This document shows positions 17,303-58,178 of a stretch of DNA of 64,000 nucleotides, piece after piece (position 1 is the first letter of the stretch; each line of letters begins with the position of its first letter). The position numbers and the translations under genes were made by a program. Location: sequence record MN882349.1; one strand, written 5' to 3'. The notes beneath the pieces are model-generated. The model saw nothing but the letters and a program-made list of their open reading frames with translations, did no database searches and had not been told where the DNA came from. Source of the stretch: Escherichia phage Ec_Makalu_003.

Positions 17303-17331
17303 AGTATAGGGGATCGCCGATCCCCTGTCAA
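17303..17331 (-). promoter_or_regulatory. early promoter with stem-loop (PeSL)
   Basis: minus strand: TTGACA, 17-bp perfect palindrome GGGGATCGGCGATCCCC as the spacer, TATACT. Confidence 0.65.
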
Positions 17332-19434: not shown

Positions 19435-19463
19435 ATTGTAGGGGAGTTATCCTCCCCTGTCAA
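19435..19463 (-). promoter_or_regulatory. early promoter with stem-loop (PeSL)
   Basis: TTGACA, spacer GGGGAGGATAACTCCCC, TACAAT. Confidence 0.6.
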
Positions 19464-22961: not shown

Positions 22962-22990
22962 ATTATAGGGGATCACCGATCCCCTGTCAA
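22962..22990 (-). promoter_or_regulatory. early promoter with stem-loop (PeSL)
   Basis: TTGACA, spacer GGGGATCGGTGATCCCC, TATAAT. Confidence 0.65.
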
Positions 22991-23497: not shown

Positions 23498-23554
23498 AAT
23501 ATTATCCTCAATTTGTGGGAGAGTATTACCCCTCCCAATGATTGTTATGTTATA

Positions 23555-23875
23555 TCACACAAAATGGCGTGTCAATGCTTCTTTTGCGGTTCCGCTAAGA
23601 CTTTCAATCTCGCCTGGCATAACATCAACCGCCAGAACTTCTACAACATCTTCGGACCCTAACCAGTGAGTATGGCCTTTGTAGAACTTGATAACCAGAC
23701 CACCTTCCTCGTCCCATTTAACGCTATCGCTAGCCCACCACACATCACCGTCGATAAAGTTGATGTAAAGCACACTACGCCACATTGAATTAATTACTTT
23801 CAATACTGCGCCTTTCATCTCTTCCACGGTATGGTCTTCCATTTTGAAGACCTCACCTACCTGAACTTTTGCCAT
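23555..23875 (-). CDS. HxH-HW family protein E, 106 aa
   Basis: motifs LYINFIDGD, KGHTHWL, VLAVDV. Confidence 0.5.
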   Translation of the reverse strand: MAKVQVGEVFKMEDHTVEEMKGAVLKVINSMWRSVLYINFIDGDVWWASDSVKWDEEGGLVIKFYKGHTHWLGSEDVVEVLAVDVMPGEIESLSGTAKEALTRHFV

Positions 23876-23892
23876 TTAGTCACCTCTCTTTA

Positions 23893-24072
23893 TTACATAA
23901 CAATCACGCCAGCCGTTGAAAGTTGATGTTTCAACTGAGCATTTTCTGCTACTGTCAAATCAATGATTTCTTGTGACGCTGCAATCATATAACCATTGGT
24001 GATATTGTTTTGCATCAGTTCAATGGTTTCTTCGTTGTAGCGGATTTTAGCGATGATTTCGTTGAAGTTCAT
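23893..24072 (-). CDS. hypothetical protein, 59 aa
   Basis: ATG at 24072 downstream of the PeSL at 24107. Confidence 0.4.
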   Translation of the reverse strand: MNFNEIIAKIRYNEETIELMQNNITNGYMIAASQEIIDLTVAENAQLKHQLSTAGVIVM

Positions 24073-24106
24073 AATTGATTCTCCTAGTTCGTTTCGGTAT
24101 GTGTGC

Positions 24107-24135
24107 AGTATAGGGGATCGCCGATCCCCTGTCAA
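24107..24135 (-). promoter_or_regulatory. early promoter with stem-loop (PeSL)
   Basis: identical to the 17303-17331 element: TTGACA, GGGGATCGGCGATCCCC, TATACT. Confidence 0.65.
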
Positions 24136-24148
24136 CAACTTTTTTGAA

Positions 24149-24625
24149 TTATTTTTCTTGATGCTCGCGCTCGTACTTTTCGAAATAAAATTCTACTGGC
24201 TGATCGTGGATTGAAAGCAAGCCAAAGCGTTTAGCCGCACGTAATCCCATGTTACGTTGAATGTACTTCTGGAAGTTCTCGCGTATACACTTACGCCAGT
24301 ATTCTAAGCCCATACAGCTTTTGTAAAGATTGCATTGCACACAAGCCGGATTCATGTTGTCAAGTATATCGTGCTCCGGTTTATGCATTCCTACAACCTT
24401 ATACTTCCACGATCCATCATCATTACGGGCAATTCGTCCATTTTCATCATAGACTACTTTTGAGCGTCGCAATACTGGTTTGATGTGGTCTGCGTGCCAG
24501 CGATCCCCTAGTTCCTCGCCACAATAGGCACAACGCCCACCGTATTTCATTTTCAGGATCTGGCGTTGCTCTTTCTTTGACAATTTTTTAGGTTTAGGGG
24601 CTTTCGCCCCTTCATTATCACACAT
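24149..24625 (-). CDS. HNH endonuclease
   Basis: CAYCGEELGDRWHADHIKPV and NMNPACVQCN; start overlaps the DNA ligase stop by 8 nt. Confidence 0.7.
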   Translation of the reverse strand: MCDNEGAKAPKPKKLSKKEQRQILKMKYGGRCAYCGEELGDRWHADHIKPVLRRSKVVYDENGRIARNDDGSWKYKVVGMHKPEHDILDNMNPACVQCNLYKSCMGLEYWRKCIRENFQKYIQRNMGLRAAKRFGLLSIHDQPVEFYFEKYEREHQEK

Positions 24626-26114
24626 CGAATACCTCTTTTACTGTATTTGCAGTGGTCTTGTCGTAGCGAATACGTTTGATGATTGGGAGAAATAAAGAGA
24701 ACTCCGGTTCATCTTCTTTACGTGATTTGCTGCGGATATATCCGTTGCATGTCATCTCAATGACTTTTCCGATCAGGTTATGACGGTCAGCCCATAACAT
24801 TTCTCGGTCGAGTTCATTTCGACGATCGAACGGAATTACACGTTCAATACCATCATCATCTTTTTCGGTTGTGGTGTCGGTCAATCCCGATCCGGTGTTA
24901 GTCGTCATTCGTCCGCACGCACTACGGACAGTAAAACCGCCTACCTTGTTAGGATCTTTACTATGCGGATATACATCAACAATTTCCGCGTCGAAGTCAA
25001 TCACTTCTTTAAATTTAACCTGATCTTTACTGCGACGATCTTCAAATACACCATGTAAATTTTTAAGGATAATACCTTCTAATCCCATGTTGACATAACG
25101 ATGATATACTTCGCGAGCTTCATCGATATTGTTAACTACAGTGTTTTCGATTATCTGAACACGAGGATCGTTAAGTTCTTCAACAATCTGTTTTAGTTCT
25201 TCGAATCGATCTTTATATTGCTTCGTTGCTTTCTCGTTTCCGTAATACACATCACGGTCGATAACATCCCAGACAGTGTAAACAATACATTGGGCTTCTT
25301 CTTTTGGAATAGTTCCTTTCAGTGATTTGTTGAGGATACCATTTCCGGTCTGACGGTCTGCAACAACGGATTCTTTCACTGCTTCCGCTACTGGCGTTAA
25401 TGGCATTTCCTCTTCTTCAAATATCCATGATAGAGTACCATCATAAACGCTCTCAACGAAGTTCTGCGCTGGTGTTTGAGAAAGGGTAGGCATATATACC
25501 AACTCACCATCTAAAACAATTCCACGGCCTCGTAGACGCTCTAAAACAGCAAACAAATCATCCAGCCCCTGATAGGTATTACCTGAACGGGTATAGATTG
25601 CTAATGTTTCTCCGTCAATATCAGCCATACCACGAGCGCCATCGCTTTTAAGTTGTGCATACGCCGGATATTTGATATTGGCAATAGTCTTATCAGAACA
25701 TGACGATGCAAGGTGGCACGGCTGCTGAGGAATCAGCTTCTTCCATACCTTGTTTGCGGTGGTAGCGGAACAACCGCATTCCAGATCACGATTCAGGACC
25801 ATCATTGCAACTTTAGCATCATCTTCTGACAAGCAAGTCAGAGTATCGGTAACTAGCTGTAATGCAGCATTACCAGTTACTTGACGCGTGGCAAGTTTAT
25901 TTTTAAAGACCTGTAATGCACCGGATAAAGACAATACAGACGAATAGCGAGACGGTTTATCGTATTTCTTTACGCCAAACGTAACCTGCTTGCAATATGC
26001 CAGATAAAAGCATTCTTTCAGCGTTTCATTGCTTGCAGATTCTTTCAGGATCTTTTCTTTCAGCGATGTTTTGTCAGTGGCTGCAAGCTGATTAATGATA
26101 TTAAGAATTGACAT
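24618..26114 (-). CDS. 30: ATP-dependent DNA ligase gp30
   Basis: motifs QLKSDGAR (KxDG adenylation), VLDGELVY, RDLECG, as recalled from T4 ligase; ATG at 26114 (track start 26120 is a GTG). Confidence 0.9.
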   Translation of the reverse strand: MSILNIINQLAATDKTSLKEKILKESASNETLKECFYLAYCKQVTFGVKKYDKPSRYSSVLSLSGALQVFKNKLATRQVTGNAALQLVTDTLTCLSEDDAKVAMMVLNRDLECGCSATTANKVWKKLIPQQPCHLASSCSDKTIANIKYPAYAQLKSDGARGMADIDGETLAIYTRSGNTYQGLDDLFAVLERLRGRGIVLDGELVYMPTLSQTPAQNFVESVYDGTLSWIFEEEEMPLTPVAEAVKESVVADRQTGNGILNKSLKGTIPKEEAQCIVYTVWDVIDRDVYYGNEKATKQYKDRFEELKQIVEELNDPRVQIIENTVVNNIDEAREVYHRYVNMGLEGIILKNLHGVFEDRRSKDQVKFKEVIDFDAEIVDVYPHSKDPNKVGGFTVRSACGRMTTNTGSGLTDTTTEKDDDGIERVIPFDRRNELDREMLWADRHNLIGKVIEMTCNGYIRSKSRKEDEPEFSLFLPIIKRIRYDKTTANTVKEVFDV

Positions 26115-26580
26115 TTTCACCTCGTTTTGTTAAACGTTCACGAATATCATTTAGGATACTACAAAATTCCGATTCGGTCAATATGGTCTTTAACGGATCA
26201 GTTCCACCTATGCTATGACGCAATTTCTTATTTCCGGTAGCGAGCAATGCTTTACAAAAATCTGGGTTATTTCGTGCCATCGTAACAAATGCCAGATGTA
26301 CCAGTCTGTAATAATGCTCACTCATTCGATGAATCGGGCGACCCTGAAAATATAGCATGTGATTCTCTATCTTTTCAGTCCTTCCGGTTCTTTTTGCTTT
26401 GCAGCCGTGCATCAAAAAGATTTCTCTTTGTCTCTGAGGGTTCTTAAATCTTAGCCCCTGTAAAAATCCTTCTGTGCTGTTAATATCGCAACCAAATAGA
26501 CGGAATGGCCTTTTATTGAAATTACTCAACTCGCCAGATGGATAAGGTCCACCCGCATAGATATCAATTTCAGAAGTCAT
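26101..26580 (-). CDS. NADAR-like domain protein (YbiA-like)
   Basis: 159 aa; GELSNFN, STEGFLQGLRF, ALLATGNKKL and ILNDIRERL parallel E. coli YbiA as recalled; overlaps the ligase start. Confidence 0.55.
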   Translation of the reverse strand: MTSEIDIYAGGPYPSGELSNFNKRPFRLFGCDINSTEGFLQGLRFKNPQRQREIFLMHGCKAKRTGRTEKIENHMLYFQGRPIHRMSEHYYRLVHLAFVTMARNNPDFCKALLATGNKKLRHSIGGTDPLKTILTESEFCSILNDIRERLTKRGENVNS

Positions 26581-26780: not shown

Positions 26781-26806
26781 AAATATAGGCGGGATTATTT
26801 CCCGCC
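26781..26806 (-). terminator. rho-independent terminator after gene 31
   Basis: ggcgggattatttcccgcc hairpin followed on the minus strand by a U-rich run. Confidence 0.55.
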
Positions 26807-48448: not shown

Positions 48449-48464
48449 GGGGGCGAAAGCCCCC
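48449..48464 (+). other. GC hairpin with GAAA tetraloop between genes 34 and 35
   Basis: gggggcgaaagccccc; no T-run, so likely an RNA structure rather than a strong terminator. Confidence 0.4.
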
Positions 48465-58149: not shown

Positions 58150-58178
58150 AGTATAGGGGATCACCGATCCCCTGTCAA
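58150..58178 (-). promoter_or_regulatory. early promoter with stem-loop (PeSL)
   Basis: TTGACA, spacer GGGGATCGGTGATCCCC, TATACT. Confidence 0.65.

Follow-up and report, generated by a model that had tools for sequence, protein, structure and literature searches.

A small HNH endonuclease gene lies directly behind the DNA ligase gene of Escherichia phage Ec_Makalu_003, and its position raises the question of whether it is a homing element that still invades related phages or a resident gene of the genome that carries it. The window analysed here is a stretch of 64,000 nucleotides from this phage (MN882349.1). It belongs to Krischvirus, the RB49/Phi1/JSE group of T4-type coliphages, and the 2.7 kb around the HNH gene match 59 phage records at 95-98% identity, all of which are Krischvirus or unclassified RB49-like phages.

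The gene was identified by Pfam, PHROG and synteny as the homologue of RB49 ORF212. It occupies 24149..24625 of the minus strand and specifies, from an ATG start, a protein of 158 aa (MCDNEGAKAPKPKKLSKKEQRQILKMKYGGRCAYCGEELGDRWHADHIKPV...NMNPACVQCNLYK...), and the free-standing HNH reading frame quoted in the initial annotation is thus present as described. The Pfam HNH profile (PF01844) scores 27.0 bits, above its gathering cut-off of 21.4, and PHROG 2118 ('HNH endonuclease') matches residues 4-157 with E=7.9e-55. The PF01844 alignment covers only profile positions 1-24, the N-terminal half of the motif, because an insert of ~35 residues parts HADH from NMNPACVQCN. The protein is laid out as a basic N-terminal tail, a CxxC...HxDH...N...CxxCN zinc-finger core interrupted by this beta insert (~35 aa), and a conserved C-terminal helical region. 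The predicted structure shows a confident HNH fold of the beta-beta-alpha-metal type, flanked by the basic tail and by three C-terminal helices, and the HNH domain is the only one that Pfam finds.

Across an alignment of 102 homologues, C32, C35, D46, H47, N90, P93, C95, C98, N99 and K102 are invariant, as are R111, F146, F148 and E149 in the C-terminal region, and the first ten of these correspond to a predicted CxxC/CxxC zinc site together with a D-H...N...N catalytic set. Among nine Krischvirus genomes, the catalytic and zinc residues (D46, H47, N90, N99, C32, C35, C95 and C98) are unchanged. When the family profile was compared with solved structures, one sequence match was obtained, the Mn-dependent Gme HNH nicking endonuclease (4h9d, 1.3e-5); a PDB sequence search with the single protein gave only sub-threshold Cas9/HNH matches. 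The protein is a bona fide zinc-finger HNH nuclease that looks catalytically intact and is presumably active. Such an enzyme would probably be stabilised by Zn and depend on a divalent metal for nicking or cleaving DNA, with D46/H47 as the catalytic pair, N99 as a metal ligand and C32/C35/C95/C98 as the zinc site. A defence-system identity was rejected, as the marginal PADLOC/NCBIfam matches to PtuB and retron HNH proteins (E about 5e-4 to 8e-3) fall far below the curated cut-off.

The gene immediately upstream is the ATP-dependent DNA ligase, gene 30 (24618..26114, minus strand, 498 aa). It matches Pfam DNA_ligase_A_M at 2.8e-22, its homologue is annotated as gp30 in RB49, Phi1 and JSE, and its DNA is 96-99% identical to the gp30-annotated gene of RB49-like phages. 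The ligase probably starts at ATG 26114 rather than at GTG 26120 of the mechanical ORF list; the annotated homologues all begin at the ATG two codons downstream of that GTG, which leaves an overlap of 14 nt with gene 30.3. At its 3' end the ligase reads ...AAAGAGGTATTCGATGTGTGA, and its TGA (24620-24618) and the HNH ATG (24625-24623) share an 8-nt overlap, ATGTGTGA (24618..24625, minus strand). The claim that the HNH gene overlaps the 3' end of a ligase therefore holds, with the ligase identified as gp30 by Pfam and by annotation. The ATGTGTGA overlap is kept in 9/9 Krischvirus genomes compared. A Shine-Dalgarno sequence for the HNH gene, AAGAGG (24632..24637, minus strand), lies within the last ligase codons, 6 nt 5' of the ATG. 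Judged from the sequence, the overlap and this site indicate translational coupling, through which synthesis of the HNH protein would be tied to that of the ligase.

The two genes also appear to share a transcription unit. Gene 30.3 (26101..26580, minus strand; Pfam Phage_30_3 at 5.3e-39 and relatives' annotation) belongs to the same packed gene string, upstream of the ligase, whose start it overlaps. A terminator-like hairpin after gene 31 (26788..26806, minus strand), at the place where a terminator is annotated in GEC-3S, is the likely upstream boundary of an ORF215-30.3-30-HNH unit in which the HNH gene would be the last cistron. On the downstream side, a PeSL element (TTGACA-GGGGATCGGCGATCCCC-TATACT; 24107..24135, minus strand) begins 13 nt beyond the HNH stop codon, in agreement with the placement of the gene just upstream of such a promoter at the edge of the hyperplastic region. 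It is a near-consensus early sigma-70 promoter whose 17-nt spacer contains a GC stem-loop, GGGGATCG-GCG-ATCCCC, and here the ligase-HNH transcription unit ends and the hyperplastic region begins. The stem-loop and promoter of this element would limit ligase-HNH transcription on this side.

The gene itself is already known. It has been annotated in RB49-like genomes since 2003-2006, RefSeq labels the RB49-like homologues 'HNH endonuclease', and in reviews it figures as a putative homing endonuclease gene (HEG). RB49 ORF212, Phi1 ORF212 and JSE gp219 (NP_891783, YP_001469556 and YP_002922291) are the same gene at 96-100% protein identity, in the same position and with the same gene 30 overlap as in the window. 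RB49 ORF212, with its Pfam HNH match, was placed under 'putative mobile DNA elements' in 2006 (PMC1524935, Table 3), and in 2010 the RB49, Phi1 and JSE gene entered a count of putative HEGs under 'other HNH' (PMC2993671, Table 5). The present comparison adds that the gene is not polymorphic: it is fixed, and the constraint on it is strong, equal to that on the neighbouring essential ligase.

An active homing element is expected to vary in presence and absence among relatives, and with about 58 genomes now available no such variation is observed, which corrects the emphasis of the earlier listings. HNH DNA was found in 58 Krischvirus records, which include a few GenBank/RefSeq duplicates, as a single copy in every one, and 58/58 adjoin gp30. 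Ligase DNA at ≥95% identity was found in 59 records. For the 58 genomes among them, the ligase match begins one nt past the HNH match, and the 59th is a 1,491-bp RB49 fragment that ends within gene 30. No Krischvirus genome without the HNH gene was seen among the records searched. Outside the genus, the closest ligases among ~1,530 T4-like records are at most 45% identical, no isolated phage in that set has a ligase at 45%-95% identity, and no HNH-less genome close enough to recombine was found. Morganella phage vB_Mm5 is the only T4-like phage outside Krischvirus among the best 60 of 157 HNH protein matches.

Vertical inheritance is further suggested by a sister lineage represented by two short metagenomic contigs (L006; SRR8048111 and SRR8048117). 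These carry a 155-aa HNH homologue (P0003) with 70% identity, preceded by a ligase whose C-terminal 246 residues are likewise 70% identical to the window ligase. The HNH start again overlaps the ligase stop, here as TAATG rather than ATGTGTGA, and a terminator and an early promoter follow the HNH gene. That both genes are equally diverged and stand in an unchanged order implies joint inheritance since the lineages split, and as far as these sequences go the ligase-HNH pair points to old vertical co-inheritance. Scanning metagenomes for further intermediate lineages yielded a single low-quality Krischvirus contig, and in IMG/VR the matches on phage-sized contigs were all distant relatives of at most 47% identity. 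The sporadic occurrence at a conserved site that is typical of HEGs is thus not found for the Krischvirus gene, either in the 58/58 records or in L006. The comparison of the gene 30 3' flank among relatives, chosen beforehand as the one to count against homing, shows the gene in all available relatives.

Selection was measured by the Nei-Gojobori method across nine Krischvirus genomes. The HNH gene has a mean dN of 0.0047, a mean dS of 0.137 and a dN/dS of 0.034, as compared with 0.0045, 0.130 and 0.035 for the ligase and 0.0024, 0.089 and 0.027 for gene 30.3. In these genomes the amino-acid changes in the HNH protein are few, and none falls at catalytic or zinc residues. Diversity in sliding windows stays level at 0.02-0.04 between gene 31 and the HNH stop, with a sole dip to 0.008 at the overlapping junction, and the diversity across gene 30.3, ligase and HNH shows no sign of a recent sweep, co-conversion or decay at the HNH locus. 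The homing lifestyle that the initial annotation proposed for this locus is thus not supported, given both fixation and constraint, with diversity the same as in the flanks. The gene has a GC content of 43.8% and a GC3 of 0.45 (window GC, 40.4%; ligase GC3, 0.36). Foreign base composition was rejected as a signature of the gene; it is not diagnostic, as a neighbouring small ORF has similar values.

A few alleles appear damaged. A metagenomic contig of a divergent Krischvirus (Logan ERR14656784; P0002, L099 4001-4477) carries a TGG->TAG change at HNH W110. Its HNH gene has a dN/dS of 0.03 at a dS of 0.62, with values of 0.02-0.03 either side of codon 110 and the downstream codons still conserved, and the amber codon is either a very recent change or a sequencing error. 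Synonymous divergence of this allele is about three times that of the ligase (0.62 vs 0.22), which indicates that alleles have been exchanged by ordinary mosaic recombination across the locus. A second allele, on a 1-kb contig (L097, MAVA01000210.1), has three 1-nt homopolymer deletions in the HNH gene and an inverted 3' junction, with zero deletions in the adjacent 430 nt of ligase. In a third (L098; P0004, 4001-4724), unrelated sequence follows HNH codon ~76, about 480 bp before the contig end, and this is probably a chimeric assembly. Taken together, the alleles P0002, P0004 and P0005 (L097-L099) are not solid evidence of HNH decay. If the lesions in L097 and L099 are real rather than sequencing errors, the gene would be dispensable under some conditions.

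Beyond Krischvirus, PHROG 2118 is a large, uncharacterised HNH family common to phages and conjugative plasmids, to which the present locus draws attention. Temperate/siphophage and plasmid homologues are 33-51% identical over residues ~19-155, and the Krischvirus protein differs from them by a 12-aa N-terminal extension. HK225 gp55, Sasha gp76, Bcep176 gp50 and IncHI2 WP_000241452 all have the same invariant residues and the C-terminal RFGL...FYFE, but unlike the window gene these members occur in early or nin-type regions or on plasmids, not beside a ligase. The family is abundant in phages and prophages of 30-60 kb; at least 578 loci were counted in IMG/VR, and the isolated phages with such a gene number about 100. 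Neighbours that recur in 80 viral contigs include a replication-initiator-like HTH protein and DUF559, DUF1064 and NinG nucleases; the ligase was not seen as a recurrent neighbour in these other 80 viral loci. Homologues were found in 2,683 plasmid records, of which 2,434 are conjugative, IncHI2 included, mostly in Klebsiella, Escherichia, Salmonella and Enterobacter. On IncHI2 plasmid pCFSAN096147 (L103 4878-5411), the HNH gene is flanked by an IS3 transposase and by a DUF6012 gene, and a large gene of the PAPS-reductase family lies nearby.

Elsewhere the family does behave as a discrete insertion, and in at least one group its members are present in some close relatives and missing from others. 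In Skatevirus-like Salmonella phages, a 463-bp segment that consists of an HNH ORF (42% identical) is present in ST1UNAM and absent from seszw, with flanks that are 92% identical (L101 1754-2216 vs L102). The ST1UNAM HNH gene is directly upstream of a 146-aa ORF, which in seszw directly precedes the large terminase gene and is possibly the small terminase; a second, unrelated HNH gene follows just after this ORF in ST1UNAM. In the T4-like Morganella phage vB_Mm5, a homologue with 49% identity is found at an unrelated locus, where regB lies two genes further downstream. The 171-aa ORF between that homologue and regB (L002 5494-6009) is annotated 'terminase large subunit', a label that is probably wrong, as the ORF is far too short for a T4-type gp17. 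Since the family moves horizontally and can be sporadic, a mobile origin of the Krischvirus copy is plausible. This is the part of the homing idea that stands; at the gene 30 locus itself it is not supported.

Considering these results, we think it probable that the Krischvirus gene is a resident, vertically inherited nuclease gene of mobile-type origin, a former homing-type nuclease that has become fixed and is kept by purifying selection. Its source would be a family of small free-standing HNH genes that circulates in phages and plasmids, and it would have been gained directly 3' of gene 30 in the ancestor of Krischvirus and its sister lineage, with fixation since that gain and purifying selection thereafter. 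Within the sampled Krischvirus population the gene is probably not homing at present. A purely selfish HEG is expected to decay once fixed, and the sustained constraint on the HNH gene therefore suggests that it confers a benefit. Our preferred guess is that the nuclease has most likely been retained since cutting foreign DNA pays off, and its likeliest target would be the DNA of co-infecting related phages that lack the gene.

A stronger version of this proposal, which we offer tentatively, is that the gene is not selfish at all and may be a domesticated nuclease, long kept by Krischvirus and co-expressed with the ligase for a function, either as a weapon against co-infecting phages and foreign DNA or as a nick-processing partner of the ligase. 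If so, the presence of the family on thousands of conjugative plasmids and in prophage early regions would suggest a general 'establishment' role in mobile elements. The HNH locus alone is of little importance. It is a fair small test case for what keeps homing-type nucleases in a genome once they are fixed, be it domestication or phage-phage competition.

Fixation is also the end state of a successful homing gene's invasion. An active free-standing homing endonuclease would cleave alleles that lack the HNH gene, close to the 3' end of gene 30, and be copied in by recombinational repair, and it would appear fixed only through a sweep of the sampled population. The gene does occupy a classic T4-type HEG position, as a free-standing ORF beside a conserved essential gene, and it has been listed among putative mobile elements; the presence/absence polymorphism of the family in another phage group, its different locus in another T4-like phage and the L099 allele, more diverged than its flanks, are all consistent with mobility. 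T4 MobA-E and the I-HmuI-type HNH HEGs are likewise free-standing ORFs by conserved T4-type genes and share the beta-beta-alpha-metal core. Relative to these enzymes, however, the window protein is not sporadic (58/58), is much smaller, has a CxxC zinc finger of the Cas9/McrA type and is coupled to its upstream gene, and homing by it is putative. Pfam finds no separate DNA-recognition module (NUMOD, AP2 or HTH) in it. The 58/58 occurrence, the shared synteny and equal divergence of HNH and ligase in L006, a dN/dS of 0.03 held over dS values up to 0.6, translation tightly coupled to the ligase and the lack, among the ~1,530 T4-like records, of any potential recipient near enough for homologous repair make active homing unlikely.

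Somewhat less likely still is a housekeeping role in phage DNA metabolism, in which a domesticated nuclease would work with the ligase to nick or process replication and recombination intermediates, or would contribute to host DNA breakdown. The shared operon, translational coupling and equal constraint with the ligase are consistent with such a role, as are the temperate-phage homologues in replication/recombination (nin-type) modules, beside replication initiators and DUF559, DUF1064 and NinG nucleases, the wide retention of the family on conjugative plasmids and the weak similarity to EndoVII-type PHROGs. Since the cytosine in the DNA of RB49-type phages is unmodified, any discrimination between self and non-self would need another basis. 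However, ~1,470 other T4-like records have a ligase with no such HNH gene adjoining it (taking the best 60 of 157 HNH matches), so that ligase function is independent of the HNH protein, and in the other viral loci the family does not recur beside a ligase. The possible natural amber allele in L099 also argues against an indispensable housekeeping function, as does the presence in RB49 of its own endonuclease VII, gene 49. A substitute for EndoVII (gp49) was rejected on the latter ground, the HNH protein not being a gp49 orthologue; a T4 gp49 query, in an approximate sequence, gave nothing convincing against the window.

The last candidate, an HNH terminase cofactor of the HK97 gp74 type needed in DNA packaging, is effectively refuted by gene context, since the HNH gene is flanked by the ligase, gene 30.3 and small ORFs, with no annotated terminase within 4 kb either side in RB49, while the HK225, Sasha and Bcep176 homologues lie in early replication or nin-type regions rather than beside the terminase and close Skatevirus relatives lack the HNH gene. 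It would have had in its favour the similarly small size of the protein, the Skatevirus-like homologue just upstream of terminase genes, and structure and profile matches to the GVE2 and Geobacter Gme HNH nickases, which belong to the terminase-associated class. Gme HNH (4h9d) and phage GVE2 HNH (5h0o) are usually found next to terminase genes; at about 95-110 aa they are shorter than the window protein and have neither its ~35-aa beta insert nor its C-terminal helical region. In T4-type phages, terminase genes 16/17 are located elsewhere, and headful packaging needs no HNH protein.

Downstream of the resident HNH gene the genomes begin to differ. Among the 58 records, 36 have the 3' end of the window type; in the other 22 it is of the RB49/JSE type, with three different codons at the end of the gene and ORF211 immediately behind it. 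The C-terminus in the window is of the Phi1/GEC-3S type (...EREHQEK) as opposed to the RB49/JSE type (...ERENKE), and PeSL stands directly 3' of the gene in place of the ORF211 of RB49 and JSE. As the two types part at the last codons, the variable hyperplastic region starts exactly at the HNH stop. At least three arrangements of the region 3' of the gene (window 23500-24148) are seen among Krischviruses: HNH-PeSL-ORF209 in the window, SSG23 and Makalu_002; HNH-PeSL-ORF210-ORF209 in Phi1, GEC-3S, kvi and TB34; and HNH-ORF211-ORF210-ORF209 in RB49, JSE and FL15, whose HNH gene has other codons in its last three positions. In Krischviruses of the second and third arrangements, ORF210 alone or together with ORF211 thus separates ORF209 from the HNH gene. 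In the window, the first variable-region gene after PeSL is the RB49/Phi1 ORF209 homologue (23893..24072, minus strand, 59 aa from ATG 24072), for which PHROG 14803 matches residues 23-81 of a longer mechanical ORF.

PeSL elements were defined and experimentally tested in RB49 and Phi1 by Arbiol et al. (PMC2839356). Five PeSL-type elements are present in the window, all on the minus strand (17303-17331, 19435-19463, 22962-22990, 24107-24135 and 58150-58178), each with TTGACA, a GGGG...CCCC stem-loop and TATAMT; two are identical and two more are 1-2 bases off those, in agreement with earlier descriptions of repeated regulatory cassettes in RB49 and Phi1. A mobile cassette flanked by PeSL elements was considered and rejected, as PeSL is found on the 3' side of the HNH gene only (24107-24135) and the 5' side overlaps the ligase. 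No PeSL-type promoter was found 5' of the gene up to 28.9 kb.

Within the HNH gene, codons 5-10 contain a perfect GC hairpin, GGGGC-GAAA-GCCCC (GGGGCGAAAGCCCC; 24597..24610, minus strand), with a folding z of -3.4. It belongs to a 24-nt stretch, encoding DNEGAKAP, that is absent from the L006 gene, and it may act to attenuate expression of the HNH gene or to make the ligase-HNH mRNA more stable. The 14-mer occurs in 2 exact copies in the window, vs 0 expected by chance, and the second copy (48450-48463, plus strand) is intergenic, between a 1246-aa ORF and the next plus-strand ORF.
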